Assembly (NCBI GenBank): GCA_047947115.1
Contig: CP170459.1
Span: 2,720,001-2,784,000, forward strand
DNA from: Verrucomicrobiota bacterium
GTDB taxonomy: Bacteria; Verrucomicrobiota; Verrucomicrobiia; Limisphaerales; AAA164-E04
Direction: 5' to 3'
DNA length: 64,000 nt
How positions within the stretch are numbered: position 1 is the stretch's first letter; every line of letters starts with the position of its first letter. A model generated the notes under the pieces. The model was not told where the DNA came from and searched no databases. It saw nothing but the letters and a program-made list of their open reading frames with translations. Position numbers and translations under genes: made by a program. Positions 10,139 to 37,100 of the stretch are shown one piece after another.

Positions 10139-13100
10139 ATGATGCATCGCATGTGCAGGTTTATTGGAACGTGTTTTCTTTTGGTTGTTTTTTCGCTGAG
10201 TGGTCATGCTCAGAAAAATCCGTGGGATGAGGTCCAGTTTCAAAAGGCAGAGCGCTTGTTCGGCGAGGGCTCTTATCAACTTGCATGGGAGGCATATCAG
10301 CGCATTTCTGAGGCTGATCTTGACGGTCAATCGGATGCGTTTTTTTGGCTGAAGTTCCGTCTTCTGGATGCCAAATGGAGGGCTGAAAGCGGATCTCGTC
10401 CCAATGATTCCGGTCAAACAGATGACATATGGGGAGATTTGGAACGTTTGATTTCGGATCGAGACCCTCGGACCGAGCCGGGTGAATTGGACGCCATCCT
10501 GATGGAGTCTGCGGGGGATTTTTGGTGGATCTCCCGTTTCAGGCGTGATTGGGCCAGAGCTTGGACTTATTACGAAAAGGCACTGGATATTTGGGCGCGA
10601 TCTCCGGACGTTTCTCATGCCAGAGATGAATATCTATCCATCATCTGGAAAGCCTCTCGTCCGGACGATGCCAATCGCTTCTACAGTTATGGGGGGTATG
10701 GAAACATCATTCCGGTGGAGGCGTTGGAGAATGCTGTTCGCATTGCAGAATCGCCTGAGGACATTGCTCACGCCCATTACCTCCTGGCCAGGTCACTTCA
10801 ATCGACGTACGGGCTTTCCGAGTTCACGTACGAAAGGACCCAGCGCGCATTTCAGCAGGCAACTTCCGGGCATGAAAAACATGCGTGGCTGGATGATGCG
10901 CTTGCTCAATATGCCCAGTGGCTTTCGCATCAGGGCAAACCTGTCAGGGAGGCCAGTGGTCAATGGTCGTTTCATTCCGATTTTCCGGCAGCGGTGAAGG
11001 TTTGGGAAAAACTGCTGGATTTGTATGAAAGGGAAGAAACGCGTTACCACAGTGATGCGGTCAGCCAGATCCGCGACATTACTGAAGCCCGTTTGGATTT
11101 GAACGTGGATGACGCTTTTGTTCCCGGATCCAACATTCGTTTTTATGCGAACTGGCGCAACATTAAGGAATTTCGATTGAAGTTGTATCCAATCGATTTG
11201 GTAAAAGATATTCAACTGACGGATGGTGAACTTGGCCCCGATGAATGCATGCAATCGGTTCAAATCGCGGGACGAGAAGCTGTCCTGGAAAAAAGCATCA
11301 CCACCGAAGACACAGGGCAACATGAGCCTGGATCTCGGGAAATCGTTCTCGAGGATTCTCTCAAGGAAGGGGCGTATCTCGCGGTGTCCTATGCCGACGG
11401 CGCTGAGGAACACAGGGAATTGGTTTTGGTCAGCCACTTGTCAGTCGTGGCAAAAGCATTCAGCAATCGCATGCTCATTTGGGTGTGCGATGCCAGGAAC
11501 GGGCTCCCGATTGCCAACGCGGAAGTCAAACTATGGAAGCGATATCGGGAAGATCGAAAACGCTTTTGGGAGGGGATGACCCGCATGACGGATGATCAGG
11601 GTCTGGTTGTGGTGGATCTGCAGGACATGACTTCGCACGAATGGTTGGTCAGCGCACGACATGAGCAGCAGCAAAACCTCACCATGTGCCGGACCACTGG
11701 GTATCGGGTGGGGGCTCAACAGTGGAAAGTTTATGCGTATACGGATCGGCCTGCTTATCGGCCTGAGGATTTGGTCCACTGGAAAACGATCATAAGATCT
11801 CGTTCAGAGGATGGTTATTCCACCCCGAGAGGGTATGATTGCAAAGTCAGGATTTATGACCCCAAAAATGCCGTGATCTTGGAAGAAGAGGTCACATTGA
11901 ACGATTTTGGATCTGCGCAAGGCGAATGGAAACCGTCCAAGGAAGCCGCGTTGGGGATGTATCGCATATCATTTTTGAACGGGGAAAACAAACAGATAGG
12001 GAGCGCGGATTTGTTCCGTTTGGAAGAATACAAACGTCCCGAAATGAAACTTTCCATAGGCTGGCCTGAGACCGTGAACAATCAAGAAGCACCCGTGTCC
12101 AGACCCGGGGATCGCATCAAGTTGGAAGTGACAGCAGGGTATTATTTTGGAGGTCCTGTGGTCAATGGCGAGGCAGAAGTACGTGTTTATCGCAGGCCTC
12201 ATTATTTCTCGTTTCCCGTTCAACGTCCCTATGCTTGGCTATATGAAGACTTCAACGCAATCGGGGAAAGAAATCAACGCAGCTATTGGCGGCGGAGCGA
12301 GACACTGGATCATGAATTGACGGCCAAAACAGACGCCAAAGGAAAGGCTGTCATTGAGTTTGAAAGCTCCGATGATTTGTCGAGCGACATGAACTATCGT
12401 GTCGAAGTGCGTTTAACGGACAGTTCCCGTCGGGAAGTGGTCGCCGAACACGAAGTGCGAGTATCACGTCAGGGGCATTTTGTTCAAACCAAGTTGGACC
12501 GCAAACTGGTGCAACCGGGGGAAAAGGCCACGTTCCATTTCGAGGTTCTGGATGTGAATGAACGTCCTCTCCAAATGGAAGGGGATATTAAAATCATACG
12601 CAAACGATGGCGCGAGGTTTGGTTGAATCCTGAAGGATTGGAATTGGAGGGTGCCGCTCTTGAGCGAGTGCGCCAAACACATTCCGTTTTTCCTCCGCCG
12701 TTGTCCCGACCAGACCAGCGTCCGTGGCGGTTGAAAGAAAAGGGCTACGCTCCGGAAGTCGTTATGGAACGAACCATCACCACCGATGGCCGGGGACAAG
12801 CCGAACTGACCTTTACACCTGCGCAGTCCGGATATTACACCGCACTTTGGACGAGTGAGGACAAGCGCCCGGGAGGTTTGGCCGGACCGGGTAAGGAAAT
12901 CAGGTCCGAGACCGATCTGTGGGTGCGAGGCGCAGGGGACGACGCAATGGGCTATCATAGTGAGAGTGTGGAAATCATCATCGATAAGGACACCTTCAAG
13001 TCTGGCGAAACAGCTCCGGTCATGTTGACCGTGCCCACCCATGATCGATGGGTGCTGTTAACCCTGGCAGCCGAAAGCATGATCGAGCATCATGTGATTC

Positions 13101-16100
13101 ACGTGGAAGGAACGACGCGGATGGTCCCCATTGAAATCCATGCCGCCCACGTCCCGAATTTTTACATTCAGGCGGTGATGGTGGGGGATTATCGAGTTAG
13201 CACGGATCAGGAGCAAGTGACGGTTCCTCCGGTTCAGGAATTTCTGAATGTGAATGTGAGGCCAGACAAAACCGATTACCGGCCACGTGAAAAAGCCGTG
13301 GTGGACATTCAGGTCACCAACAACGAAGGACAACCTGTCGAAGGCGAAATATCACTGGCTGTGTTCGACGAATCCGTAACCTACATTCAGCAGGACATTG
13401 CCGGAGATCCACGTTCATACTTTTATGGAGACACTCGCAGGTTGATCTCAGAGGAAAGGGGGCCGTGGCGTGGTTTTGTGAACTTGAAATTGCTCAAGGA
13501 TGGTCGAGTGATGTCGGAGGAAGAGTTAAGGCGATATCGCGAAATGGGGGTTGATCCGGAGAACCTCGAAAAGGACTTGAGTTTCTTTTGGGATCAAATG
13601 AATGCTCGAAAAGATTTGGGTTTTCCCGTGTTTGGAGGAGTTTCCGGATTTGGAGGGGGCGGTTATGGTGGGATGATGGAGGAATCACAATTAGAGCCCC
13701 TGACTGGCCTTCCACAAGCCTCACAAATGATGCGTCGGTATGGGCTCGTGCCAAGTGAGCGAGGCTCTATGGCTGGTGGGACTGCTCCTGGATTGATGGC
13801 TTTTGATGCGGCTCTTCCCAAGGCGATGGCTTCATTGGCTGAATCTTCGAGCGACCAGGTCGATGTCGTCGTTCGCAATGACTTGCGAGCCACTGCGTTT
13901 TGGGAACCCTCCATCCAGACCGATCATGAAGGAAACGGACGTTTCGAATTCGAAATGCCCGACACATTGACCACATGGAAACTGGATGCCAGAGCCGTAA
14001 CACAGGAAACCAAGGTCGGAAAGGGAGAAGCAAGCGTGGGCACCCGGCATCCCCTGGTTGTCCGATTGCAGCATCCAAGGTTTCTGGTGATAGGAGATCA
14101 GGCAGTGTTTTCCACGATCGTCAACAACCAGACCAATGCCGATATTCGGGCAAAAGTCACTCTTGAAACCGAAAACATCATCTGGGCTGAAACCATTGAA
14201 ACTCCCGGCGTGATCACCGTTCCCGCGCACGGGGAATACCATATCGACTGGCCCGGCGCTCTGGCTGTGGAGACAGGGGACATAAAGCTCCATGCCACAG
14301 TGAAGAGTGATGCCTACGCAGACGCCGTGGAAATGACCCTGCCCGCATATGAACATGGTATCGAGCAGTTCCTCGCCTGGACCGGGAAGAGTTCCGAATC
14401 CGAGGTTCAAATTCCGGTGCAGCTGCCGGGTAAAAGAAAAAAGGGGACCACTGAATTGGTCGTGCAAGTTTCACCCAGCCTTGCGGTGACCATGCTGGAT
14501 GCCGTGCCCTATCTGATCGATTATCCATACGGTTGCACCGAACAGACCTTGAGCCGATTCCTGCCCGCGATCGTTGTGCGAAAAACCTTGGCGGATTTGG
14601 GGCTGCCCGTAGATGCGATCGAAGCAGGGAAATTCGGCGGGGTGGATCCTGCTCATGTGCGAGCCACGCATCGATCGGGTTACGAAGCTTTGACGAACAT
14701 CGACAAGGTGGCAGAAGAAGGTTTGAAGCGTTTGAAGGATCTGCAGCATGCCGATGGAGGGTGGTCATGGTGGGAGAGTGGGGATGCGGATTTGTTCATG
14801 AGCGCTTACGTGGTGTGGGGATTAAGTTTGGCCAAGAAATCCGGACTGGAGTTTGATCGGGACCTGCTGATTCGCGGGCGCAATTTTCTGGCAACCCAAA
14901 TCGTTCGGTCGGAAACCATGCCCGATTTGCAGGCCTGGTTGTTGCATGCAATACACAGTGTGGGCGTGCGAGGTCTGGATGACAAACCGCGTCGGGCGGT
15001 CGAAGCGGCTTGGGACAATGCCTGGGGAAAACGGGATTCACTGAACGCTTATTCACGGGCCTTGTTGGCCTTGGCGGCTCACGATGCAGGGATGGCAGAT
15101 GAGGCCGAAACATTGGTCCGCAATCTGGAAAATGCTGTGGTTCACACTGAAGCCTCTGCTCCCTCCCAACTCCAATCAGGAACCTTGTCGGGTGGTTCAG
15201 GTGCCACCGCGCATTGGGGAGAGGACGGCATCTATCATCGTTGGTCCGATGGCGGGGTTGAGGCGACATCCGTAGCCTTGCGGGCTCTGCTTGTGATTGA
15301 TCCGGACAACGCTCTGATTGAACCGGTGGTTCGCTGGCTGATTCAAAACCGACGCGGGGCTCACTGGTCCAACACACGCGACACCGCGATGACCTTGCTT
15401 GCTCTTAATGATTATCTCAAGATCAGTGGTGAATTGGAATCCGAATTGCAGTATGAAATCCATGCCGGGGACAAACTGGTTGCGACCGAACGCGTGACAC
15501 CCGAAAACTTGTTCAAAGCGCCCAGCCGTTTTGTGATTCCCAACGATTTGGTGAATGATTCGACATCGATTCGAATTGTGAAAACGGATGGTGACGCTCC
15601 GGTTTATTACGCGGTGGAGGCCTCATGGTTCAGCTTGGCGGAACCCGTTCCAGCAGCCGGAAATCACTTGTTCGTTCGCAGGGATTACTTTCGGTTGAAA
15701 GAAACACCTACACTGCTCAAAGGAACGACCCTTGAGCGCGTCCCGATTGGGGAAGGGGAAGCCCTTGTCAGCGGCGATCGAGTTGAAGTGGTCCTGACCG
15801 TGGAGACCCGCAATCATTATGAGTATTTGTTGTTTGAAGATTTCAAACCTGCGGGATTGGAAGCGGTCGAGCTTCAAAGCGGCGGACTTGCATCGATGCG
15901 CCAATTGTCACGGCGAAGTATTGATCAAATGAAAGCCGAAGGTACGCCTTCCTTGACTGCAGATCGTTCCTGGAGATTTACAGGGCGACAACAGCGTGCG
16001 CATCAGGAATGGCGAGATCGCAAGGTCGCCCTGTTTGTGGATCGTTTGAGCGAGGGTGTTTGGGAAATGCGATATACCTTGCGTGCGGAAGTTCCCGGTC

Positions 16101-16231
16101 AATTTCACGCGCTGCCGGCGATGGGACATGCCATGTACATCCCCGAGATTCGAGGGAACAGTGAAGAACAGCTTTTTGAAATGGTGAAAGATCGGTCCTT
16201 ACAGGGTTTTGAATTGAATGCCCAGGAATAA
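10139..16231 (+). CDS. Bacterial alpha-2-macroglobulin family protein
   Basis: Signal peptide, MG2 motif YTDRPAYRP, TAFWEP and MPDTLTTW, thioester motif YPYGCTEQ, QHADGGWSWW, C-terminal receptor-binding-like domain. Confidence 0.95.
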   Translation: MMHRMCRFIGTCFLLVVFSLSGHAQKNPWDEVQFQKAERLFGEGSYQLAWEAYQRISEADLDGQSDAFFWLKFRLLDAKWRAESGSRPNDSGQTDDIWGDLERLISDRDPRTEPGELDAILMESAGDFWWISRFRRDWARAWTYYEKALDIWARSPDVSHARDEYLSIIWKASRPDDANRFYSYGGYGNIIPVEALENAVRIAESPEDIAHAHYLLARSLQSTYGLSEFTYERTQRAFQQATSGHEKHAWLDDALAQYAQWLSHQGKPVREASGQWSFHSDFPAAVKVWEKLLDLYEREETRYHSDAVSQIRDITEARLDLNVDDAFVPGSNIRFYANWRNIKEFRLKLYPIDLVKDIQLTDGELGPDECMQSVQIAGREAVLEKSITTEDTGQHEPGSREIVLEDSLKEGAYLAVSYADGAEEHRELVLVSHLSVVAKAFSNRMLIWVCDARNGLPIANAEVKLWKRYREDRKRFWEGMTRMTDDQGLVVVDLQDMTSHEWLVSARHEQQQNLTMCRTTGYRVGAQQWKVYAYTDRPAYRPEDLVHWKTIIRSRSEDGYSTPRGYDCKVRIYDPKNAVILEEEVTLNDFGSAQGEWKPSKEAALGMYRISFLNGENKQIGSADLFRLEEYKRPEMKLSIGWPETVNNQEAPVSRPGDRIKLEVTAGYYFGGPVVNGEAEVRVYRRPHYFSFPVQRPYAWLYEDFNAIGERNQRSYWRRSETLDHELTAKTDAKGKAVIEFESSDDLSSDMNYRVEVRLTDSSRREVVAEHEVRVSRQGHFVQTKLDRKLVQPGEKATFHFEVLDVNERPLQMEGDIKIIRKRWREVWLNPEGLELEGAALERVRQTHSVFPPPLSRPDQRPWRLKEKGYAPEVVMERTITTDGRGQAELTFTPAQSGYYTALWTSEDKRPGGLAGPGKEIRSETDLWVRGAGDDAMGYHSESVEIIIDKDTFKSGETAPVMLTVPTHDRWVLLTLAAESMIEHHVIHVEGTTRMVPIEIHAAHVPNFYIQAVMVGDYRVSTDQEQVTVPPVQEFLNVNVRPDKTDYRPREKAVVDIQVTNNEGQPVEGEISLAVFDESVTYIQQDIAGDPRSYFYGDTRRLISEERGPWRGFVNLKLLKDGRVMSEEELRRYREMGVDPENLEKDLSFFWDQMNARKDLGFPVFGGVSGFGGGGYGGMMEESQLEPLTGLPQASQMMRRYGLVPSERGSMAGGTAPGLMAFDAALPKAMASLAESSSDQVDVVVRNDLRATAFWEPSIQTDHEGNGRFEFEMPDTLTTWKLDARAVTQETKVGKGEASVGTRHPLVVRLQHPRFLVIGDQAVFSTIVNNQTNADIRAKVTLETENIIWAETIETPGVITVPAHGEYHIDWPGALAVETGDIKLHATVKSDAYADAVEMTLPAYEHGIEQFLAWTGKSSESEVQIPVQLPGKRKKGTTELVVQVSPSLAVTMLDAVPYLIDYPYGCTEQTLSRFLPAIVVRKTLADLGLPVDAIEAGKFGGVDPAHVRATHRSGYEALTNIDKVAEEGLKRLKDLQHADGGWSWWESGDADLFMSAYVVWGLSLAKKSGLEFDRDLLIRGRNFLATQIVRSETMPDLQAWLLHAIHSVGVRGLDDKPRRAVEAAWDNAWGKRDSLNAYSRALLALAAHDAGMADEAETLVRNLENAVVHTEASAPSQLQSGTLSGGSGATAHWGEDGIYHRWSDGGVEATSVALRALLVIDPDNALIEPVVRWLIQNRRGAHWSNTRDTAMTLLALNDYLKISGELESELQYEIHAGDKLVATERVTPENLFKAPSRFVIPNDLVNDSTSIRIVKTDGDAPVYYAVEASWFSLAEPVPAAGNHLFVRRDYFRLKETPTLLKGTTLERVPIGEGEALVSGDRVEVVLTVETRNHYEYLLFEDFKPAGLEAVELQSGGLASMRQLSRRSIDQMKAEGTPSLTADRSWRFTGRQQRAHQEWRDRKVALFVDRLSEGVWEMRYTLRAEVPGQFHALPAMGHAMYIPEIRGNSEEQLFEMVKDRSLQGFELNAQE

Positions 16232-19256: not shown

Positions 19257-21095
19257 ATGAGCTTTTCAAAATCGACCTTCTTAGGTGCGGCGCTAGGATT
19301 GGGGCTTTCCCAGTTCGCGCAGGATTCAAATGCAGGTCTATTCAAAATAGACTTCGGGCATCTTCAAAACGAAGCTCCCATATTGGAATATGAAATCGAC
19401 TATTTCGATGGGGAAGTTTTTGGTGGACCTGAGGAAATCGATTCCCAGCCGGCAGAGCCTTTGACCGATTGGGATGTGATTCCAACCTTTACCTTTGCCG
19501 ACCCCAATGCGGAAGTGACCGAAGGAAGCGCCAGTCTCATGGGGGAAGCGAACGAAGCCGGCACCGAAGTCACCTGGTCCTTGCGTGATTTTTCCGAATC
19601 GGGCAGCGACAGTGATGTCACCATGACCATTCTGGACAACACGGCATTGCCTCCTGCGATGCTCGGGATGACTGCCAACAACCCAACCCACGAAGGTTTC
19701 AAATATGTGGATTTTGACGGGAACGCCATCCCACTGCCGCAATACCAACATGTCCCGGAAATTATTTATGACGGTGTCCTTGTTCCATTTGTGGTGAAGG
19801 ATGATTATCTCTACCGGAATCCGGACAATGCTGGAACCGAGTCCTTGATGCGTTTTGGAAATCTTGATCCTGGCTTTTACAAGGTCACCGTGTTTGAGGG
19901 GCGAACCACTGATGGCAATGGTCGATTCGGAAAAGTGTGGGCAGGTGATATCAACGGCTCCAACCATCCTGACGAACAGAACACTGGCAATTATGCCGGT
20001 ATCTATGATTCCGGGGAAATCGCCCCACAAGGACAGCCACGCTCCGTGGTGGTTGAAGTCAAGGCTGGCGAATATCTGTGGTTTGCTGAAATGGAGGATA
20101 ACTCCGGTGGCATTAGCGGCATGATCGTTCGTTCTGTTGATTTCCCACCTCCTCCCGCCGATGTGGCCACATCACCCGGTTTGTTCAAGATTGATTTTGG
20201 CCATCATGAAAATGATAAAGAAGGTGTGGAAGCGCTTTCAGATTGGAACGTGATTCCCACCTGGACATTCAGTGATCCCAACAGCGATGTCGCAGAGGGA
20301 AGCTCCAGCCTTGAAGGCACCGCCAATGCCGCTCAAACCGAAGTCACCTGGGCATTGACCGACTTCTCAAATGACAAGAATGCCAACGTGACCATGACTA
20401 TCATGGACAATGCAGCCTTGACAGCAGCCACAGGGCAGCCTCCTGCATTGGGGCAGATCTCCAACAATCCAACGCTCGAAAAATATGAAGGCCATTACGA
20501 TGGGGTTTTCATTCCTGCCATCGTCAAAAACGACTACAACTATCGCAATCCGGATACTGCCGGCTCCGAGCTTTTGATGCGTTTCGATGGACTGAAGCCC
20601 GGGACGTACAACGTGACGGTTTTCGAAGGTCGCACGACAGATGGCAACGGCCGATTCGGTAAAGTCTGGGTGGATGATATGAGTGGCGGCAACGCCCCTG
20701 CTGAACAGAACACCGGAAACTATGCCGGTATGGTCAACCCAGGAAGCGGTGCTGTGATTGCTCCTGCCGGAAACCCTCAGACCGTCACCGTCAATCTTGG
20801 CGAAGGACAGCATCTCTGGTTTGCTGAAATGGAAGACAACTCGGGTGGTATCAGCGGATTGATCATCCGTGGTGTCAGCGGAGGCAGCACCGGCGGTGGT
20901 GATCCCGAGCCGGGAGGTGGCCCTGCCAATGTGGCGATTTCTGCCTCGACGGACAAGGTGACCCTTTCATGGGAGGGTACGGGCGCTCTGCAAAAAGCAG
21001 ATGCCGTGACTGGTCCCTGGAGCAATGTAGCCGGAGCCACCAGTCCATATGAGGCTGCCGCTACCGGGGCGGCAGCATTCTTCCGAGTGCGATAA
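19257..21095 (+). CDS. Secreted acidic protein with a tandemly duplicated unknown domain and a C-terminal FFR-type domain
   Basis: Signal peptide, two copies of GLFKIDFGH...EMEDNSGGISG, Gly/Pro linker and C-terminal ...GPW...SPY...FFRVR. Confidence 0.88.
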   Translation: MSFSKSTFLGAALGLGLSQFAQDSNAGLFKIDFGHLQNEAPILEYEIDYFDGEVFGGPEEIDSQPAEPLTDWDVIPTFTFADPNAEVTEGSASLMGEANEAGTEVTWSLRDFSESGSDSDVTMTILDNTALPPAMLGMTANNPTHEGFKYVDFDGNAIPLPQYQHVPEIIYDGVLVPFVVKDDYLYRNPDNAGTESLMRFGNLDPGFYKVTVFEGRTTDGNGRFGKVWAGDINGSNHPDEQNTGNYAGIYDSGEIAPQGQPRSVVVEVKAGEYLWFAEMEDNSGGISGMIVRSVDFPPPPADVATSPGLFKIDFGHHENDKEGVEALSDWNVIPTWTFSDPNSDVAEGSSSLEGTANAAQTEVTWALTDFSNDKNANVTMTIMDNAALTAATGQPPALGQISNNPTLEKYEGHYDGVFIPAIVKNDYNYRNPDTAGSELLMRFDGLKPGTYNVTVFEGRTTDGNGRFGKVWVDDMSGGNAPAEQNTGNYAGMVNPGSGAVIAPAGNPQTVTVNLGEGQHLWFAEMEDNSGGISGLIIRGVSGGSTGGGDPEPGGGPANVAISASTDKVTLSWEGTGALQKADAVTGPWSNVAGATSPYEAAATGAAAFFRVR

Positions 21096-21205: not shown

Positions 21206-21934
21206 CTATTTTCCTGTCCCCAGTGGATGCCATTGATCCACTGGATTCGGATCTGAAGCATAGGTGGTTTCAAACCTTTCAACGGACGCATGTCCGTCCG
21301 CATATCCATAGACGGATCGATCATCCTTTCCATGCCTGTCTTTGTCGACCGAGGATGTCATGCCCTGATCCCAGAAATGTGCCATGATGTGATCGGCTCC
21401 ATCGGCGACTTCACCTAACAGAATGGTTTCGGTCGGTTGGGGGAGGGAAGTTTGCTTCCTCCATGTCTTGGGACGCCCACGGTAGTCATCGGCTTCTTCC
21501 AGTTCGAAGTAAACATTCAACCCATAACTCCATCGGGCAAGCTTTCCTGCTTTGGGGCATCTGAACACACCGTTGTGAAGTGCTGACATGCCCTCGGATG
21601 ATTGGAGTGCTTCCAGCCCGACATAAGGCCGGACCGTGATTTCCCATGGGGGTTGATGATAGGCGAAGGAAGAGTGCTGACTTCTGGGGAACGTGTCTTC
21701 GAAATCATCGGCATACATACGGATGCCAAGACTCAAATGGCGGATGTTATTAAGACATTGAATCCGTGAGGCACTGGTTTTTGCCTTGCTCAGTGCCGGA
21801 AGCAGCATGCCTGCCAAAATGGCAATAATGGCTATGACGACCAGCAATTCGATGAGTGTGAAACCGGAGCGCACGCACTTTTTATGAAAGCAAGTGCACC
21901 CATTCTGATCGGATTTGAATCGCATTAGATTCAT
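21206..21934 (-). CDS. Prepilin-type N-terminal cleavage/methylation protein with H-X9-DG-like C-terminus (DUF1559-like)
   Basis: [38 protein letters not shown] and RH...YADGH motifs. Confidence 0.92.
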
Positions 21935-22770
21935 TCTGCTTCTTCGTGTGATACCAGGCGAAAGAACATTCCTTGATACGAATGGTCCAGAATAACCGTG
22001 GCGTTTCCATCAATCATCACCGGCGTTTGATGCATGGGTTGCCATTCTCCTGACTCAAGATCTGTGGTCGACTGAAGATGGTAATGCCCGACAGGCTGTG
22101 GCCAACTTAGTACGATTTTCTGTGAAATACCTAATGCCGGAACGACGTCCGAATGCTCGGCTGTCCATAAAAGGGTGAAGGTGATTCCTCCGATGTCTGC
22201 TCGTCGTTTCCCTGAGTCCAGATCCACGACAAAGGCTTCGAAATCAGCCGACAATGGGCCGCTGCCTTGAAGCGCTGCGAAGGCCGGATGAAACATGCGC
22301 ATATCCCATTCGAAGATCTTGCTGGAATCATGTGTGCCGAACATGGGGGTCCAGATTTGTTCGTCATCACTGATGCTTCGATAGGTGTAGGCCTCCAAAC
22401 CGTGATCTGCTGAAACCAATTGGATCCAAATCGCCGTCCCAAGTGGGAGCAGATCGCTGGCTCCGTCCATGACAAAGCCGTATTGTCGATTGAATGCTTT
22501 CCCCTGGTGGTCGGGATCCAGGTCCTCATACCAAGGGGAGGTTGGATGGAAGTGCATGTCGGGATGACTTTCCTCCAAAGGTGTCAAATGGGGAATTTCG
22601 GAAGGCATGGTCACCATCAAGTGACCGTGTTCAGCCATATAACGAATGGCGGGCATGACCATGCCTCCCTGCATGGGGACTGAACCAAGTTGCGTTTCCT
22701 GTGCCTGTAAGTTGACGACAGTTGAAGCCGCAATAAGGGTCGATGTGACGATAAATGTGCTTAAATTCAT
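21931..22770 (-). CDS. Secreted Met/His-rich hypothetical protein with a C-terminal FFR-type domain
   Basis: Signal peptide, MQGGMVM...MAEHGHLM...HPDMHFH, C-terminal LSWP...LQSTTDL...W...FFRL. ATGA overlap with the pilin-like gene. Confidence 0.85.
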
Positions 22771-22920
22771 GTATATTTATGGTTTTGTTTGATTTTTAAT
22801 GGCTTGAAGCCTGCGAGTCCTCGGGTGATGACTGCAGATGTCGCCTCGTGGCCCTACCGATTCAAAGGAGGCCAGGGTACACGAAACTATGTAGAGGCTT
22901 GGTTGCCTCCAATGTGTTGA

Positions 22921-23301
22921 TCACGACAAAACCAAACGGGGAGGGGGAAGGTCGGGAGGCGCGCGTAACGTTGTGAACCCGCGCACCACAGGAGAGGTGT
23001 CTTTCTGGACATTGGGTGCCATCAGAGCAATGGCAGATCCCTGGTGAAAGAGGTCCAGTTTGATGTTGGATTTGAGGAAGTCTTGATGTGATTCCTGTTT
23101 CTTACCTTCCCGGACGAGTCGGCAGATTTCGCAGGAAGTTTCGGAATCAAAAGTTTTTGATATGGCGCTGATCAAGGATCGATCTTGGGAAAAATCCAGG
23201 ATCATGTTCGCCCACCCAATTGTCTGCAACAGCCCCCAATGGCCACCAATACTGATGGTCAGGCTTACGACAACGATGAATCTGGCGAACAAGTGACGCA
23301 C
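22921..23301 (-). CDS. CxxC/RAPP leader protein (DUF2946/CruR/CutF-like)
   Basis: Hydrophobic N-terminus, CEIC, C-terminal LRAPPDLPPPR. Confidence 0.75.
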   Translation of the reverse strand: MRHLFARFIVVVSLTISIGGHWGLLQTIGWANMILDFSQDRSLISAISKTFDSETSCEICRLVREGKKQESHQDFLKSNIKLDLFHQGSAIALMAPNVQKDTSPVVRGFTTLRAPPDLPPPRLVLS

Positions 23302-24075: not shown

Positions 24076-27000
24076 TTACGGCGCTATCGTCCACGGTCCG
24101 TTCACCGTGGGTGCCGTTTCCAGTGGTCCTTCCACCTGGATGAGGATGGTTGTTGGATCTTCTCCAAGGATGATCAGGTTTCGACCACGATAGAATCGGG
24201 CAGCCTCTGTGGCTTCGATGGAGAGTGTGCGAATGCTTGGTCCGACGACGGGTCCGTCGCATTCGTCCGGGATGCCGTTTCCGTCCAGATCATCGACAAA
24301 GCCCAGGGCAATTTCGTCCGCATCGAGGATGCCGTTCATGTTGCAGTCACCACTGCCGAATGGATCGCATTCGTCCGGTTTCATGTCGTCATTCAGATCA
24401 TTGGAAAATCCCGATTGAATGTCGCATCGATCCGGAATGCCGTTGCCGTTGCAATCGGCGACCAGACCTTCGGTAATGGCAAGGATGTCGTTGACCCCGT
24501 CTCCGTCGCAGTCTTCACCGCTCGGAATGCTTACCATGTATTCGCGAATGCTTTGGGTTTCTCCGTTTGCAAAGGTGGCGACTAGGTGGCCGATGCCGGA
24601 TGCGTGCGGTTGGAGTTGGATGCTGCGGAACTCGCCGCTTGCTTCATGTGTGATGGGTGTCGGACCGGATATCAGTTCACCATTTTCATTCACCCACGCA
24701 GTCAACACTGCCGCTTCGTCCGCTCCTTCGATCCATGCAAGGAGATAGGTGTTGATCCCATCGATTTGTAACGGCAGGACATTGATGTCGTTGCCCGGTG
24801 TGAATAGTGTCGTGGATGGCATGGGGGTAAACTGGCCGCTGTCTGCATCCCATTGATGCAAGGTGATCGATTGATCTTCCATGATGCCAGCCGTGATCAG
24901 ATTTCCCTGATGGCCCTGGTGCACGTCGAAGGGTGAGCGAATGTTTGAAAGAGCGAGACTTGGGGACGGCCAAGTCGCTCCATTCCAGTCCAGAGTATAA
25001 AGTTCATTGGCAGGATTGGAGACGCTGAGTTTGGCGGCGATTTCATCCACCGCGTTGAGTTCATAATGGACCCATTCACCGTTTGCGAGCGCCAGATCGG
25101 GTCCCACCCAGACCCCGTTAATAAAGGACATGGTATGGAGGGAACGGTTCCGACCCAGCGGACCTTCATCTGTGATGAAAAATGCCGCCATGGCACCGGT
25201 GCCGATGGATGTCAGGTCCAATTGATAAATGGCGTCTTCGGAGGACATCAATTCCACGGGGGTGCTCCATTGTCGACCGGAAGGATCCGATTGCAGTGAT
25301 TTCAAAACCGTCGAGGGGTAGGGGGTGAGGATATCGGTGTCTTCCAGTTCGCTCCAGACGACCAACCATGAACCGTCTGCAAGTTGTTCGGAAGCGACGG
25401 AGACCATGCCATGGGACCGGGCGAGTTCCTGGGGTGCCTGCCATCCATTGTCAGTCATTTGACTCATCAGGAGGGTCATTTCACCTGTTTCTGGATCGGT
25501 GCCGGTGTAGACCAGAGAGGTGCCGTTTCCTGATGAAAAGTCCATGTGACCCGCATCATAGAAATCCTTCACGAGTGTTCCACCCGTGCCGACGAATTGT
25601 GACGGCAGGGCGGTCATGGGAGTGATGATGATGGATGAGGTGTTTAATGGAGTTAAATCAAAGGTCGGCACGGAAGCACGTTCGATGTTGAAAGTAAGCA
25701 GGTCGTATTGCCAGGATTTGCTGATACTGGTGACGTACAGGTTTAACTTGGCTGAGAAGACAAAACTGATGGCTCCTGTGATTTTCTTGACGAGAGGTTG
25801 TCGCCCCAGATCGTTGATATCGATAAACACTCCGTCCACATCCGACTGTCCTTTTGGGGCTCCGAGTTGAACCTTGCCAGATGCAGTGAGTGAATTATTG
25901 GCGATGCTTCCCTTGAGTCCCAACGCTACCCGGACGATTAATTTCTTCTCATTGGAGATCTTGGTGTTGTCCTTGATATCGGTGGCCACGTCATTGACCG
26001 TGCCAATCATGTTGTATCCGGGCGTGGTGGGGGGCGGATCGTTCCGGCCTGTCGTGGCCCCGAGATCGCGTCCTTTGGGGATGCTGTGCTCGAACTTGAC
26101 GGTCACCTTGGCACCCGTGGTCACTTCAAAAAATGCTTCCAGGCTGAGTGCGGTATAACCAAAAATATCCTCGATGGCTTCATTGAGTTCCTGAATGGGC
26201 TTACCGTATGGCAGCAGTTCGATGACGGGGGTAATATCGACACCGACACCCAGGTCAACGGTTCCCTGAGCTTCGAGGATGCCTGTGGACATGGACAGGC
26301 GATTCACGCCGGCGCTTCCTGAGTCAAAGGTCTGGCAGTTGGCGAACTTTGCGGAGATGCTCACCTTGGGCCCGCTGAAATTCACTCGATCACCGACGAG
26401 TTCCTTTGCTCGGGCCGCCAGTTTGGGAATGTATTTGTCCTTGGATCTTTCTTTGTCAATTTCGGCTTCATTGGCAAGAACGACCGCAATACATGCCTGA
26501 TTATCGCCCCCGGAAACCTCAAATTCTGCATCCACTCCCGCACCGCTGATCTTTAAGCCCATATATTTTGCAGCAAGCGACATCGGACCCCGCTGAGGGC
26601 TGTCTTCGCCGATGGGGAGTTCGATGCCCAGTACGTATTTGTAGGTTATATAGAGATTGTCTGCCAATAGATCCTCGGTGGGATTGAAGACATACCGGCT
26701 TTCGCTATCAGGCGCGGTGTTGATGGGCACCACCCCGATACGTGCTTCTATTTTTCCGGATTGAGCCAGTTTCAGGAATCGATCCCCAAAATTCTTGTTC
26801 AGTTCGCCGGTTCCTTGTCTTTGGGTGGTAGCTTGGGCTTCCTCGTCCTCATCCTCTTCAGGAGCACCAACGCTTGGAAGTGTGGATGCGGCTCCGACAA
26901 CTTCCAGAATGTTGGCAGCCCAACGTGGCATGGTCATCCCTCTCAACGGGGCGGCTTTTTTGGGACCATCGTCGCCGGGGACATCCGGTAGCTCATAATC

Positions 27001-29553
27001 ATGGAATGTCACTCCACCGTTTTTGGAGATCACCACCGCCATGGGTTTGAATTCACCTGCCGGCAGTTCCCAGAGTCGCAGTTTTCCTTCGAACTCATCA
27101 TCCTCGTTGATATCTCCTTTGAGGGCAATTTTATGAACCACATAATAAGGTTCACCATCTTTCTGTGCGCTGGATATTTCCGCCAGCCATTCCCGTGTCG
27201 TGACATAATTCACCGTTGATGGAATGCTTAAATCCCAAACTTGTTCATCGTTCACGCTTGGATTTTTGAAGAAGCGCTTGTCCACCAGCCAAACCTCTTC
27301 GATTTCGTCTCTGACTCTGCTTGTTTGATCAGGTGTGGCTTGTTCGTTTTCGCCCACAAAACCTGGTAATGTCAGCGAATAGCTTTGTGGGTCGGCTGCA
27401 ACTTTCCAGGTGGCAGTCAGTTTCCCGCGGCTTGCTTCCGGATTCAGACCTACTGAACTCAGGTTGCTGTCGGTAGCTTTGGTAACTCCGGGGATGAACA
27501 TGCCAAATCGGTTCAATGTAAACTTGGTGACCTCCGGTCCCGGGACTTTGCTCATGGTCAGGTTTTGATCAAGAAAATCCGGTTCGTCGAGATTGGTGGG
27601 CGCATATTTGATTCGGAGTGGTTTGTATCCTCTTCGGTTGATGTCCAGAAAAGTGGTCTGAGGAACAAGTCGCGCCACGGAAAATCGACCGTTGGCATCG
27701 GTAATGGCATTGCTGATGGGATTGCCATAACGGTTGCGTGCCACTATGGCGGCGCCGGGAATGTTTTCTCCGTCCTCGCCTTTCAGCGTTCCCGTGATCA
27801 ACATGGCTCGTTGCATGTTTACGGTAAGCCTGAGCAATCTTGCTTCGGGATCGATCACTTCAACTTTGCTGGGAGGCCAGAAAGCATACGTCCATTGCCC
27901 CGGTTTCTGTTCGGCTCCAGAAGGGTAGGGATTTCCCGTGAATGTGGATGTTTCCCCTGCTGGAAGGGTTTGAGGTGGATTCCCGTTGAAGCTTACTGTC
28001 ACGTTTGGAATCTGGCGATTGGGATCACCTGTGCTGACGGCTCGAATATCCAATTGATAATTCTTCAGATTTCCAACCTGAGTGCTCCCTGCCGAATTTC
28101 CCAAATAGATGGGGGAATTTGCCAGGGAGAAATTGTCAAGCGGCCCACCTATGATCGCACGTTCCAGATTTGCCGGGCCCGCCCCACCAACTTTAAACCA
28201 ACTGGCATTTTGTAGCCAGACAATGTAGTTGCCCTTTGGAATACCTTCCCCAAAAGCATAGACGAACACTTTGTTTCCGGTTGCCGAACTCATGAAGAAT
28301 TCCGGTCGTTGAAGGCCATGGTATACATATCCGTCGTCTGGCCCATCGTAGCGTGAGCTTTCTATGAACACTTCCCCTTTGTATTTCCAATCTGCTTCGA
28401 TGTTGAATTGTTCCGTGCAATGGGAAATACCTGGAAAAAAGTAAGTAGGGGTGAACGGTTCGACTCGGGGCAACACTCCCGGAGCATCCCAGCCCTCGAT
28501 TGAAAACTGCACGGGGGGAGCGTCGTAATCTTCATGGATGAGTTCCAAGGTGTAGTCGCCGGGCAGCAGATATTTCATCAGGAAAAAATTGTCACTTCGC
28601 ATGGTTGTTTCCAGAGTGACTGGTCCTGTGACCCGGATGCGGGCATCGGTGGCCAGGAGGTGCTTGTAAGGAAATGTTTGGAGTCCGGTGCCGTCTTCGT
28701 TCATTCTGAGAACCTGGTTTCCGAAAGGTTCATTGGTTGTGTTGATTCGTCCGCCTGTATGGATGTAGTGCCGATGCACAAACAGATCCAATTGATAATG
28801 GTGGGATGAATCAAACCGCAATCCCGCCTTGTGGTGGCCGAATTCAAAATTGCCGTAAGGCCAGGTGTCGGGATAAGGCCACCCGGATTCCACGGGAGGG
28901 ATGCCGCCGGTCAAATCTCCGAATTCGACGTTGTGTCCTGCGTAGCCATTCATGGTCGGGATCTTTACCCCATAGATGCCGGGGAGAATGGTGGCGGTGT
29001 AATTGCCTGCTTCATCGGTGTCGACGCTCAATACTTTGTGCGTATCGTCCAACTGTTGAATGATTTGGTGTTCGATGAACTCGATGCCATCGTGAGCGAT
29101 TTGATAAAAGACACGGTTGGGTTCGGAATAACAAGGTTCGAAATCCAGATTGCCATTTGTGTCGGTGGCCCACAGGCGCCCTTGGATGGTGGCCGGAATG
29201 GGGTTCAGATCGATGAACGCGGTCTCTGTTTTCCCTGGATCCACTTCAGCATAGGTTTCTTGGGGGAAGAATTTGATGTGAAACGCCTCAGGACCTTGTA
29301 ATGGTCCTGACTGACTTGGAAGGTTTTGGAGTGTTGCTTCGTGCACGACCTGCAGCCAATACCTTCCAGGCATTAAATTTTCGAACAATACTTTGACGAA
29401 CAATCCATCCTCGTCCAGAGCGGTCATGGCCTCTCGCGTGATGCCTTCAGCACTGGAACCATCCACCCCTCGAAGTACAACGCGGGCGCCTTCCAGAATG
29501 TCCGTGTTCTCATAGGGTGAATCAAGGATCACCTCCACTTTGGTGGGCAACAA
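24076..29553 (-). CDS. Very large extracellular protein, main part (carboxypeptidase-regulatory-like domains, propeller-like region, DCxxNG calcium-binding repeats)
   Basis: TDEAGNY and TDANGRFS beta-sandwich motifs; C-terminal repeats DCDGDGVND, DCNGNGIPDRCD, DLNDDMKPDECD, DCNMNGILD, DLDGNGIPDECD. Confidence 0.85.
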   Translation of the reverse strand: MLPTKVEVILDSPYENTDILEGARVVLRGVDGSSAEGITREAMTALDEDGLFVKVLFENLMPGRYWLQVVHEATLQNLPSQSGPLQGPEAFHIKFFPQETYAEVDPGKTETAFIDLNPIPATIQGRLWATDTNGNLDFEPCYSEPNRVFYQIAHDGIEFIEHQIIQQLDDTHKVLSVDTDEAGNYTATILPGIYGVKIPTMNGYAGHNVEFGDLTGGIPPVESGWPYPDTWPYGNFEFGHHKAGLRFDSSHHYQLDLFVHRHYIHTGGRINTTNEPFGNQVLRMNEDGTGLQTFPYKHLLATDARIRVTGPVTLETTMRSDNFFLMKYLLPGDYTLELIHEDYDAPPVQFSIEGWDAPGVLPRVEPFTPTYFFPGISHCTEQFNIEADWKYKGEVFIESSRYDGPDDGYVYHGLQRPEFFMSSATGNKVFVYAFGEGIPKGNYIVWLQNASWFKVGGAGPANLERAIIGGPLDNFSLANSPIYLGNSAGSTQVGNLKNYQLDIRAVSTGDPNRQIPNVTVSFNGNPPQTLPAGETSTFTGNPYPSGAEQKPGQWTYAFWPPSKVEVIDPEARLLRLTVNMQRAMLITGTLKGEDGENIPGAAIVARNRYGNPISNAITDANGRFSVARLVPQTTFLDINRRGYKPLRIKYAPTNLDEPDFLDQNLTMSKVPGPEVTKFTLNRFGMFIPGVTKATDSNLSSVGLNPEASRGKLTATWKVAADPQSYSLTLPGFVGENEQATPDQTSRVRDEIEEVWLVDKRFFKNPSVNDEQVWDLSIPSTVNYVTTREWLAEISSAQKDGEPYYVVHKIALKGDINEDDEFEGKLRLWELPAGEFKPMAVVISKNGGVTFHDYELPDVPGDDGPKKAAPLRGMTMPRWAANILEVVGAASTLPSVGAPEEDEDEEAQATTQRQGTGELNKNFGDRFLKLAQSGKIEARIGVVPINTAPDSESRYVFNPTEDLLADNLYITYKYVLGIELPIGEDSPQRGPMSLAAKYMGLKISGAGVDAEFEVSGGDNQACIAVVLANEAEIDKERSKDKYIPKLAARAKELVGDRVNFSGPKVSISAKFANCQTFDSGSAGVNRLSMSTGILEAQGTVDLGVGVDITPVIELLPYGKPIQELNEAIEDIFGYTALSLEAFFEVTTGAKVTVKFEHSIPKGRDLGATTGRNDPPPTTPGYNMIGTVNDVATDIKDNTKISNEKKLIVRVALGLKGSIANNSLTASGKVQLGAPKGQSDVDGVFIDINDLGRQPLVKKITGAISFVFSAKLNLYVTSISKSWQYDLLTFNIERASVPTFDLTPLNTSSIIITPMTALPSQFVGTGGTLVKDFYDAGHMDFSSGNGTSLVYTGTDPETGEMTLLMSQMTDNGWQAPQELARSHGMVSVASEQLADGSWLVVWSELEDTDILTPYPSTVLKSLQSDPSGRQWSTPVELMSSEDAIYQLDLTSIGTGAMAAFFITDEGPLGRNRSLHTMSFINGVWVGPDLALANGEWVHYELNAVDEIAAKLSVSNPANELYTLDWNGATWPSPSLALSNIRSPFDVHQGHQGNLITAGIMEDQSITLHQWDADSGQFTPMPSTTLFTPGNDINVLPLQIDGINTYLLAWIEGADEAAVLTAWVNENGELISGPTPITHEASGEFRSIQLQPHASGIGHLVATFANGETQSIREYMVSIPSGEDCDGDGVNDILAITEGLVADCNGNGIPDRCDIQSGFSNDLNDDMKPDECDPFGSGDCNMNGILDADEIALGFVDDLDGNGIPDECDGPVVGPSIRTLSIEATEAARFYRGRNLIILGEDPTTILIQVEGPLETAPTVNGPWTIAP

Positions 29554-30248
29554 GTCGAGTTGGTGCTGATTTTTGCAAAACCACCCGCGGGTTGTTGCCG
29601 GATTTCGAATTCCTTGGGTTCATATCCCAGCTTGGCGACGGACAGTTTGTAAGGAATTCCCACCAAATTCGTATAGGCGTGTTTTCCGGCAGTGTCCGTT
29701 AACATGGTGGTTTGAGGTAGCACAACACTGTCGAATTGAAAATCGTAACCGGTCATCTGCAGCACCACATCACGCATCGGCGCGTTTTCCTCCTCATTGA
29801 CAGGGTTATATCCTTTGACCTCCACTTCCATGCCTGTGCGAATGGGTTTCATGTAAACGCCGGCCATGTGATCCCGAATCAGCCTGAGCTTGTCGCCTGC
29901 TATGGGGCCCAGGGACGGATCGGGTGTGTAGACGATATCTTCCCAACCGGTACGTCTCATGGTGAACCGATAGAATCCGTTCTCCAAAAACTGGATGGAT
30001 CCTTTGCACAGTTCATTTGCATTCGCCCGGAAAACGCTGTCCGCATTGCCTGAAATGGTTCCGTCCGGCAACCAATATTCGGCTTCGATTTGAGCACCTT
30101 CCAACGGTACCATGGTGGCGAGATCATAAACCTCAAAATCCACATCAAAGACGGGCGTGACATTGGCCTGGGTAAGGCGGATGAGTTTGTGGGGTTTGTC
30201 AGCTTGATCCTCAACAACGTGCCTCCTCTTAACACGATACGACATCAT
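29529..30248 (-). CDS. N-terminal part of the same extracellular protein (frameshifted)
   Basis: PLEGAQI and TDTAGKH...KLGYEP carboxypeptidase-regulatory-like repeats. Joins the downstream ORF if the T5 at 29570-29574 is T6. Confidence 0.7.
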   Translation of the reverse strand: MMSYRVKRRHVVEDQADKPHKLIRLTQANVTPVFDVDFEVYDLATMVPLEGAQIEAEYWLPDGTISGNADSVFRANANELCKGSIQFLENGFYRFTMRRTGWEDIVYTPDPSLGPIAGDKLRLIRDHMAGVYMKPIRTGMEVEVKGYNPVNEEENAPMRDVVLQMTGYDFQFDSVVLPQTTMLTDTAGKHAYTNLVGIPYKLSVAKLGYEPKEFEIRQQPAGGFAKISTNSTCCPPKWR

Positions 30249-34110: not shown

Positions 34111-37100
34111 TTACTCAAACCGAATTCTTACGAATTCTTGCTTTTGCGATTCAACTGGTCGTGTGCTGCGATAGATCAGGGTTTCGCGTTGGATTCCCCG
34201 GAGCGTGCCAGTGTGGACGATGCGTCCGGGATCACTGTTCCATGTGATGAGGTCCGGGGAGACTTCAACGACGGCTCGAATATCCGTCACCAAAGGATCA
34301 TGTGTGAATCGAATGGTTAGATAATCACCAGGAGGCTGCATTGTTTCATCAGGTTCGATGCTGAATTGAATGGCTTCTCTCGCATCATTCGGATTCTGGT
34401 CGCTGGTTCCCAGATAGCGCTCTACCATGGCAGCCAATCCATCCTGATCAGCATCTATCGAAGTGTTTGTTGCGCCTGGAGTGCCGCCCTTTGTCGAACT
34501 GGCTTGCCACGAAGCCGGATCTTGAGGATCCATGTCTCCATGAGTGTTCTTGAGCACCAAGCTGAACCCATCGCCATCAGCCGATTCGGGCCATGGAGCC
34601 TTGTCATTGTACCGGAAGGACTGGATCACGATCCCGTCGGCATCCTTCAGAGTGATGGTTTCTCCGTTGTTGGCCAGTGCGGAATCATTTTGAAAAACGC
34701 CTGCGAAGGGAATATCGGGATAAGCGAGCGCAAACTGTTCGGCGTTGCGGACCAGGACCAGGCTGCTGTAGGACTCCATGATAGCGTCATCTGCGAAGTC
34801 GAAATCAATGCCAGCCGTGAACCGGACGCCTGTGAGGGAAAGTGGTTGGCCAGAAAGATTCAGCAGTTCTATGAATTCCAGCGCTTCCGACAGCGAAGGA
34901 TGATACATGATTTCTGAAATGATCAGATGATCAGACGTTGCTGGCGCTTCCAAACGAAAGGAGGTTTCCACCAACGCCGACCATTCCCCTTGATGAAAGG
35001 CTCGTGTCTTCAGCTGGGCCGATTCGGTCAGGACGAGCGAAGAGTCATAGATCTGAGCGGACGTGTTCATGCTGGAGGCGTCCAGGCGAGAAGCCACGAT
35101 TCTGGGGGTAATGAGCAGATCACTACTGGTCAGGCTGGTATTGAGTCCGTGGATGGCCAGGATGTTGGTGCCCGCCACCAGCAGGTCCATGTGGGAGGTG
35201 ATATCAAAAGAGATGAAGGTGGTGGCCTCGTTGTCGGCATGCGAGGTAAGGGCCAGTGAATTCCAGCCGGGGGTTCCGAAAGGCGCGTTCTCCTGTGCGA
35301 CCCGGACGCCGTTCAGATAGGCTATGAAACCGTCATCATACCGCATTTGCAGTTGGAGGGAGGTCATGGATCTCAACGTTGCCGGATCATCCAGTTCGAA
35401 TGGAACCCGGATATAGACGCTGCCATTTTGATTCCGCATTTCCCCGACATCCAATCCGATGAATCCTTTGTAGTCGGATGGAGTCGTTTCATATCCCACA
35501 CCCGTGCGCCCGGTTTTCCAAGCGGCGGTTTCCCGGAAGGAACGTTGGATCCAATCTTCACCCAGGCTGTCATCCAGAGGGATGAGTGCGCTGACCGGCG
35601 CTCCGTCGTTGAGCAGGATGGTCTGGATCAGTTTCGCTTCCTGCCGCGGGTCGGTTCCGTCGATGGTGTAGTAGATGATGCCTTCCGGAGCGTTGATCTG
35701 GATGGGATTGTTGATTGTCAGATGCCCACCCGCAGGTGATATCGTCGGCGCATCGATACCTGGGAAAAGTCCGGCGGATCGCAATTCGTTTACGATGGCG
35801 AACTGGCTGGAGGGATCATGCAGTGTCGGGAGGTAATGGTCGAGGATGTTGTCACGTTCCACCAGCCAGGAATCCTCACGCGTGAAATAAATATCCGGTG
35901 CATGCGGTGCGGGAGGGTAGTGGTCGTGATCAACGTTGGTGCGCGGGCTGGGTTGTTGAACGGAATTACCGTAGGGCGTGCTGGCCTGGGTGTCGCCCCA
36001 GCGGGCCGATTCCGCAACAATTGCCTTGTCGATTTGATTGGCCAGATTGAGGTAACGCTGACGACTTTGGTTCAGACTCAGGGCTCCGTCGTTGAAAAGA
36101 TGTTTTTGAACACGGTCTGCAAACAAGTTTTTGAATGCGGTGCTTTGCTTCAGTTTTTGGAACACACCCCCTGCGCCATCCGCCTTGAAATATGGATTCC
36201 AACTGAACTTGTCCAATGCGATTTCCTGATCCCAGACAAAAAAACGAAAACGCCCGTCACCGGATAAAGGATTTGCCGCTGCGTAACCGTTGTGATGTGG
36301 CCAATCTTCCGCGTCCGCATAAAAGTGCAGCAGGAAATAATCGGAGATGTTTTCCACATCCAGATATTCCTGTATCTCGGCATAACCTTCAGGGGTGGAG
36401 GCGTCGATGCGCGACATTTGATTCCATCTCGTGCCCGGGCTGCCGAAATCTTCGTTGATTTCCCAATCCTCCGGTTCGCCGCCCAGATGAGAGGCATAGA
36501 AATCATCGCCCAATCGTTCGGTCAGGTTATGAAGGCCGAAGTAAAGGCCGTTTACGTAAAGGTGGACAAAGTTACCATAACTCGAAGGTTGACCTAATGC
36601 CCGCATAGATTCCTTCATCCATATATCACGCAAGTATTGCGAATCATTCGGGCGATACCGGGAGCTTCCCCAACTGACCAATCCCCAACTGTCGGTAAAA
36701 CACGCACGCAAGACGAGTTGATTGAAACGTTCGACAGGCGAATCTGGGAACAGAGGGTATTGCAGTTTTGACGCTCCTTGTTCGGATGTGAAAGTGACGC
36801 GCAAGGAATGTTTCTGCATGCGCCAGGGGCGTCGGCTGGAGTTTCCGTGCACTTCGATTTTGCAGTTTTCCTGAAATCCCTTGCTTCCGTCCGGCAGGAT
36901 GTATTCCATCGAGCAGGCCCGTTCAATTCGGCTTTGGGGGATGGCGTAAATACCTCGTCCCGGTTCGATGAATTCGTCCTGATCCATCACGATGGAGACG
37001 CTGGGGATATCCAGCAGGGCATCACGTATCCCGTATCCTGGAAGCGTGTTTTCGACGACACGGGGATCCATTTCATAGTCGGCGGGCACGATGCCACTGC

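Follow-up and report, generated by a model that had tools for sequence, protein, structure and literature searches.

The window analysed here is a 64,000-nt stretch (positions 2,720,001-2,784,000 of CP170459.1) of the 6.08-Mb, single-contig genome of a Verrucomicrobiota bacterium (GCA_047947115.1, 95.8% complete). Genes were taken from 5225 ORFs called by a greedy rule, which places starts approximately and seems to have split some genes. By their database labels, homologues point to Verrucomicrobiota subdivision 3. The feature under study is a terminal domain at 20928-21095 (+), flush with the stop codon of a 612-aa protein (carrier 1; 19257-21095, +), which has a signal-peptide-like start, an internally duplicated body without any family above cut-off, and a Gly/Pro linker. 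Contigs cover the carrier 1 gene in 4 of 4 metatranscriptome runs, these runs having been chosen because they hold it. The domain of carrier 1 represents a short subtype. Further copies end carrier 2 (279 aa, His/Met-rich, 21931-22770, −; domain at 21949-22125, −), carrier 3 (1585 aa, with CotH kinase, LTD and CHB_HEX_C domains, 34111-38868, −; domain at 34114-34350, −) and carrier 4 (FG-GAP and Big_9/cadherin-like repeats, 59945-64000, −; domain at 59954-60130, −). The copy of carrier 3 is of a long subtype, with a longer stretch between strands C′ and E. RNA contigs scarcely cover the carrier 2 gene, and we place no weight on this low coverage. The original prediction had noticed similar tails on these four unrelated proteins: all four were found where it had placed them, and they belong to one domain superfamily. 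It was mistaken in the extent of the fourth ORF, as the gene starts outside the window and encodes 1883 aa in full.

A fifth copy, overlooked at that time, lies at 24079-24234 (−), at the C-terminus of a 1825-aa ORF (24076-29553, −). In this tail the RFYR strand comes first and the GPW loop last; read from sequence, the strand order would be E-F-A-B-C-C′, i.e. a circular permutation, and a re-ordered profile gives it 20-21 bits. The 1825-aa ORF is without a signal peptide. Its start is overlapped by a 239-aa ORF on the same strand (29529-30248, −), and the two may be a single gene that was split, as also seems to be the case for several other carriers of this genome. A candidate divergent copy, N-terminal this time, follows the signal peptide of 54950-58462 at 55016-55249 (+), with a score of 7.6 bits that was equalled by 1 of 230 scored shuffles. 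Next to carrier 2, and overlapping its stop codon, is a gene with a prepilin-type N-terminal cleavage/methylation motif (21206-21934, −; TIGR02532 above cut-off), to which it may be linked. A small Cys-motif gene, carrier 2 and the prepilin-type gene form one run (21206-23301, −), which, from its composition, may be metal-related. The window also encodes a bacterial alpha-2-macroglobulin of 2030 aa (10139-16231, +), a large, exported protein without the terminal domain.

Single-sequence phmmer searches with the four tails did not retrieve any of the other three. Iterative searches seeded from each tail converged on 127 domains in 121 proteins, the strict carrier set, with 0 reversed-protein matches at E 0.1. 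A leave-out profile, built without any window protein, recovered the tails of carriers 1, 2 and 4 with E-values of 7.6e-10, 3.2e-6 and 7.1e-12, respectively. It misses the tail of carrier 3; the long-subtype family, made of 28 matches gathered with this tail as seed, aligned to the main family with HHalign (probability 94.7%, E 5.7e-8, 61 columns). The termini do align significantly; the likeness among the four tails is remote, as the phmmer searches show, yet beyond chance. A genome-wide HMM search with the termini, as proposed in the original prediction, was carried out with three profiles (short, long and permuted) at a cut-off of 14 bits, and yielded 129 carriers and 0 reversed decoys. With the leave-out profile at 12 bits or more, matches were obtained in 121 of 3800 C-terminal protein windows, 10 of 3800 N-terminal ones, 6 of 7702 internal ones (5 of them from one tandem-repeat protein) and 0 of 3800 reversed ones. 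Searched against Pfam and NCBIfam, the 54 short and 26 long members gave nothing more than scattered weak matches, the 30 nearest Atlas clusters are all unnamed for short and long subtype alike, and searches of a mainly open literature brought up no description of the domain. We conclude that the terminal-domain family is real, large, and without a name in catalogues.

In most carriers (117 of 129) the domain lies no more than 15 aa from the C-terminus; it is near the N-terminus in 8 and elsewhere in 4. A single copy is present in 120 of the 121 strict-set carriers. Some copies directly follow the signal peptide, and two precede a 125-residue domain that we take to be CHRD-like. One protein carries 7-8 copies, preceded by Pro-rich linkers, and one mini-protein consists of a signal peptide and the terminal domain alone. 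Tandem arrays of the family reach about ten copies, with a period of 71-90 aa and Pro/Gly linkers; in 78 of the best 150 library matches they run right up to the C-terminus.

Besides the permuted copy of the window, another was found in the same genome (CP170459.1, 4356628-4357221) and four more in four other genomes, one query having been run against 151 genomes; 8 of the 14 matches of this search were ordinary copies. Several permuted copies are preceded by D-x-N-x-N-G-I-x-D repeats. On the evidence of their sequences, we take these copies to be permuted. They retain the C-C′ loop but not the free end of strand F, which means that a free strand-F terminus is not required; they favour recognition of a folded surface and disfavour a C-terminal cleavage chemistry. 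Together with the N-terminal copies and the tandem arrays, they argue against a cleaved, strictly C-terminal signal of the PEP-CTERM or T9SS type. The analogy with the T9SS signal that had been put forward is therefore not supported, given copies that are N-terminal, in tandem, placed before other domains or circularly permuted; nor is a close analogy with PEP-CTERM, given the lack of a membrane helix and of a basic tail.

The structure of the short subtype was predicted by AlphaFold2 from 54 rows (pLDDT 86.2 for the copy of carrier 1). The model has five strands and a short C′ bridge, in the order A-B-C-C′-E-F, and the chain stops at F; the strand letters, including the missing G, follow the usual naming for FN3 domains. 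The predicted fold is an FN3-like sandwich without strand G. FN3 domains filled the Foldseek list (best match 4lpu: E 0.11, probability 0.96, TM 0.51) and made up most of the VIA list (Z 4-5, maximum 5.1). The alignments stop near residue 72-80 of FN3 chains that are 90-107 residues long, hence our reading of the domain as an FN3 lacking strand G. These fold scores, obtained with a model, are middling and on their own no proof of FN3 homology. T9SS CTDs are absent among the fold matches listed by Foldseek and VIA, which does not exclude one. At the sequence level, the best PDB match was the discoidin-type glucanase module 2rv9 (E 9e-4), and partial matches to discoidin/CBM32 were seen for 6 of 54 members (best E 1e-4). 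Three tandem repeats folded from a single sequence gave a pLDDT of 47.9, too low to inform. Conservation is low (mean column identity 19%) and the median net charge is −4. The best-conserved residues are W, F and R, which we take to be ordinary core positions of FN3, and the conserved motif S-x-D-L-x-x-W sits in the C-C′ loop. The profile also matches true FN3 arrays that continue into strand G, so that the 25,612 library clusters found at E 0.001 or better are an over-count.

Cargo was scanned in 47 proteins, i.e. one neighbour and 46 carriers from a hand-extended list of 149 that includes weaker matches. Annotated domains comprised S8 proteases, LamG, Ig, CotH/LTD, LRR, LVIVD, GDSL and other lipases, as well as one serine hydrolase and one FGE-sulfatase domain. 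The cargo is thus unrelated and of extracellular type. A crude rule for type I signal peptides, applied to carriers of at least 300 aa, was satisfied by 85 of 106, versus 1280 of 2505 others and, for P-loop proteins, 43 of 147. Of 20 carriers missed by the rule, several look like split genes or missed signals, and a lipobox was seen in 1 of the 106. The domain is terminal in 125 of 129 carriers, most of them predicted to be exported, in line with the enrichment at the ends of exported proteins that had been expected. By the same crude rule, the residue that follows the predicted cleavage site is Gln in 44 of the 106 carriers, versus 253 of 2505 others; a similar post-cleavage Gln bias exists in Bacteroidota.

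The domain can be replaced by other tails. Among 104 homologues of carrier 2, collected with a query that included the tail and is biased towards carriers for that reason, 100 end in the domain, 1 in PEP-CTERM, and 3 look truncated or frameshifted. Orthologues of two genes of a cassette described below have a different tail of ~330 aa in the place of the domain, in 3 of 18 and 1 of 17 cases. This replacement tail, seen at three loci and possibly at a fourth, reads as three barrel-like repeats; a four-sequence profile did not find it in the source genome. No carrier of the strict set also has PEP-CTERM. Tail swaps between orthologues are a recognised mark of sorting signals, according to the accessible part of PMC3237569. 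Of the sorting or anchoring domain originally proposed, what stands is a terminal module, expanded in this lineage and present on unrelated proteins that mostly bear signal peptides; in orthologues, its slot can be filled by PEP-CTERM or another tail.

In a sample of 201 genomes of the phylum, the short profile matched 91 and the long profile 66, with a union of 102 counted by hand; genomes without a match may contain divergent subtypes that were missed. In the sample of the organism's own order, 40 of 41 genomes were positive, mostly with dozens of copies. Verrucomicrobiota is also the commonest taxon listed for the nearest Atlas clusters. In two genomes, probably of Akkermansia, GH18-LamG-BACON, sialidase and sulfatase proteins bear the long subtype.

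The inventory of secretion genes in the source genome comprises 8 secretin genes, at least 7 GspE/PilB ATPase genes, 3-4 PEP-CTERM proteins and 2 exosortases. No autotransporter barrel was detected in this genome, with a positive control, and no match to Por_Secre_tail, SprA or Slam, for which the controls were also silent. One barrel of the PorV/FadL family reaches 30 bits as PorV (cut-off 90) and scores better as FadL. T2SS/T4P-type machinery and predicted Sec signal peptides on the cargo are both present.

Genes for pilus-like machinery were found close to carriers. In the strict set, 9 of 121 carriers adjoin a prepilin-like gene, versus 2.1 expected, and none of 1000 draws gave as high a number. 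Another carrier lies directly downstream of a T2SS-like operon. At 5785517-5795507, a four-gene cassette with three carriers is located between a secretin of the MUL2/Amuc_1098 type and coaE; PilM-like, Amuc_1100-like and secretin genes precede coaE, with matches below equivalog cut-offs. An exosortase gene (5804966-5805946) precedes the PilM-like gene of this operon by a few genes, on the same strand. The remaining cassette gene, of 491 aa, has a signal-peptide-like start, no paralogue and no copy of the domain. No Pfam or NCBIfam model matched its product. The arrangement was compared at 20 loci of the own order, picked out of 36 for their long contigs. At least two cassette genes follow the MUL2-type secretin at 20 of 20, homologues of the 491-aa gene are present at 18 of 20, and a carrier lies within 8 kb of the secretin at 16 of 20, versus 3 of 40 loci outside the order. 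Cassette gene A is present one gene further from the secretin in two genomes (G207 and G229), and in three genomes of another family the gene after the secretin encodes a giant carrier of the long subtype, which scores at least 14 bits in two of them and 13 in the third.

Phylogenetic profiling for a partner translocon, as had been suggested, was done for three candidates, and no dedicated partner emerged. All 41 own-order genomes have the MUL2-type secretin, whose distribution is broader than that of the terminal domain. As sole reader it was rejected: it is absent from the single-contig, domain-positive genome G177, and none was found in G198 at E 1e-15. Both genomes have other secretins. 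A second secretin, S6, came up as a lead from five small genomes. It is found in 21 of 41 own-order genomes and absent from five domain-rich ones, and was rejected as dedicated partner. One S6 locus (5072551-5079598) is a compact operon of the secretin, two unnamed genes and GspE/PilB; three matches to the S6 secretin were flagged with one internal TGA. The third candidate, the GspE/PilB ATPase, is encoded in 195 of 201 genomes of the phylum, including all 102 domain-positive ones, and the 6 genomes that lack it, which represent two lineages, also lack a domain match. This co-occurrence discriminates little, since the ATPase is near-universal and the absences rest on two lineages. Altogether, the data fit a secretin route without naming the machine.

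Large carriers need a route: 11 of the 21 proteins of at least 2000 aa carry the domain, and the genome has no autotransporter barrel, 3-4 PEP-CTERM proteins and 8 secretins. This need, the gene links, the swaps and the precedent of PelI/Pel3 (see below) lead us to prefer, tentatively and with less than even confidence, the reading that the domain is a folded, uncleaved address tag read by a secretin system of the T2SS or T4P type. Carriers would cross the inner membrane via Sec and then fold in the periplasm. The folded surface of the tag would be recognised there, most plausibly through the C-C′ loop and the exposed edge strand F, and a T2SS or T4P-type secretin would move the tagged periplasmic proteins through the outer membrane, the tag presumably remaining on the protein. 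The secretin that reads the tag may differ between lineages. Besides the failure to find a dedicated partner and the composite, non-portable nature of published T2SS signals, three observations speak against such a tag: the linkage to the secretin is mostly specific to the order, the conserved W, F and R are ordinary FN3 core positions, and arrays of up to ~10 copies are more what one expects of a binding module than of a signal. Such a binding module could be a non-covalent surface anchor, a possible but doubtful alternative in which export signals lie elsewhere and the domain binds an envelope glycan, an outer-membrane protein or a scaffold, like SLH, choline-binding or dockerin domains. An anchor explains better than a tag the arrays behind Pro-rich linkers, with their regular period and frequent flush C-terminal position; it also accommodates placement at either end, the mini-protein made of signal peptide and domain, the swap with PEP-CTERM and the weak sequence likeness to discoidin/CBM32 sugar-binding domains. 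However, nearly all strict-set carriers are single-copy, the negative median charge fits an anionic surface poorly, no scaffold gene was found, and the export signal of ~130 large proteins would be left unexplained. One domain could do both, as secretion tag and anchor.

Two other readings fit less well than a tag or an anchor. The matches to true FN3 arrays with strand G, the low conservation, the cassette-gene homologues without the domain and the lack of a match in about half of the phylum sample are all in line with a passive accessory module, i.e. a small, stable FN3 remnant spread by shuffling, which would play no part in sorting and serve as a cap, a spacer or a weak binder of carbohydrates. 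We find this unlikely, since a spacer would be internal and the domain is overwhelmingly at an end, since it occupies the place of a known sorting signal, PEP-CTERM, and since in a genome with just 2 matches one is on a secretin-linked gene. Even less probable is a cleaved C-terminal signal similar to that of T9SS, with an undiscovered translocon and a sortase that would cleave it off and anchor the protein on the surface. The T9SS CTD has the sandwich topology predicted here, its final strand excepted, and its conserved motif lies in the corresponding loop (accessible part of PMC11285876); the excess of Gln after the predicted cleavage site and the weak PorV/FadL-family barrel also point that way. 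Yet FadL is the better match for this barrel, the domain has no counterpart of strand 7 and its conserved lysine, N-terminal, internal and permuted copies exist, and the searches for Por_Secre_tail and SprA, with silent controls, gave no match.

Returning to the address tag, its boldest version would be that, in Verrucomicrobiota, an FN3 domain with a deleted strand became a secretion tag for T2SS/T4P-type secretins, the first to be portable and phylum-wide; it would work at either end or permuted and bring more than 100 enzymes and adhesins of each cell to its surface, the job of T9SS in Bacteroidota. We hold this to be possible, though rather unlikely. Verrucomicrobiota degrade fucoidan, mucin and other hard glycans, and little is known of how their large enzymes and adhesins get there from the cell interior. 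According to the accessible part of PMC7949064, it has long been asked how T2SS picks out folded cargo that shares no common signal. If the domain is a tag, this choice becomes testable via simple fusions. The domain marks ~130 proteins in one genome, which would provide a ready predictor of the surface proteome, and the presence of the long subtype in probable Akkermansia means that a tractable host may exist.

Among known systems, discoidin/F5_F8 type C domains (CBM32) are jelly-rolls of 130-150 residues, whereas the terminal domain has ~60. PEP-CTERM, sorted by exosortase (TIGR02595, PF07589), is also a suffix on signal-peptide proteins and interchangeable with the domain in one family; as outlined in PMC3237569, in its accessible part, it has a motif-helix-basic architecture, while the terminal domain appears all-beta, soluble and folded from sequence and model. 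The type A CTD of T9SS in Bacteroidota (Por_Secre_tail, TIGR04183/PF18962) is likewise a small terminal sandwich on many unrelated signal-peptide proteins, with a conserved loop between strands 3 and 4 (PMC11285876, accessible part). It has seven strands with a terminal lysine strand and is strictly C-terminal, whereas the terminal domain has six strands, C′ counted, lacks the lysine strand and also occurs N-terminally, in tandem and permuted; the Por_Secre_tail models of Pfam and NCBIfam matched none of the 54 short and 26 long members and nothing genome-wide, the control being silent. Bacterial FN3 domains (Pfam FN3 clan, e.g. PDB 3mpc) share the predicted strand order and the W/F/R core. 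They have ~90 residues and seven strands A-G, whereas the terminal domain ends at F and is found almost solely at protein ends, or in tandem with a period of 71-90; not one of the 54 short and 26 long members was matched by the Pfam FN3 model. The pilus-like MUL2/Amuc_1098-1102 locus of Akkermansiaceae (PMC13174399) shares PilM-like, Amuc_1100-like and secretin genes before coaE, and differs by the four-gene cassette with three carriers inserted here between secretin and coaE; the accessible part of that account is without cassette or domain. A functional analogy, and no more than that, is with the Fn3 domain of PelI/Pel3, whose C-C′ loop is the T2SS signal contacting GspC and GspD (PMC7949064, accessible part). 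The fold is of FN3 type there and predicted to be FN3-like here, and the loop that holds the signal there would hold the conserved motif here; 4u49 was among the structural matches (Z 4.2, rmsd 2.7, 55 aligned). The published T2SS signals covered in that part are composite loops rather than a portable domain. In PelI/Pel3, which belong to a single enzyme family, the signals are composite and distributed over two domains, whereas what we propose here is a portable tag on more than 100 proteins.
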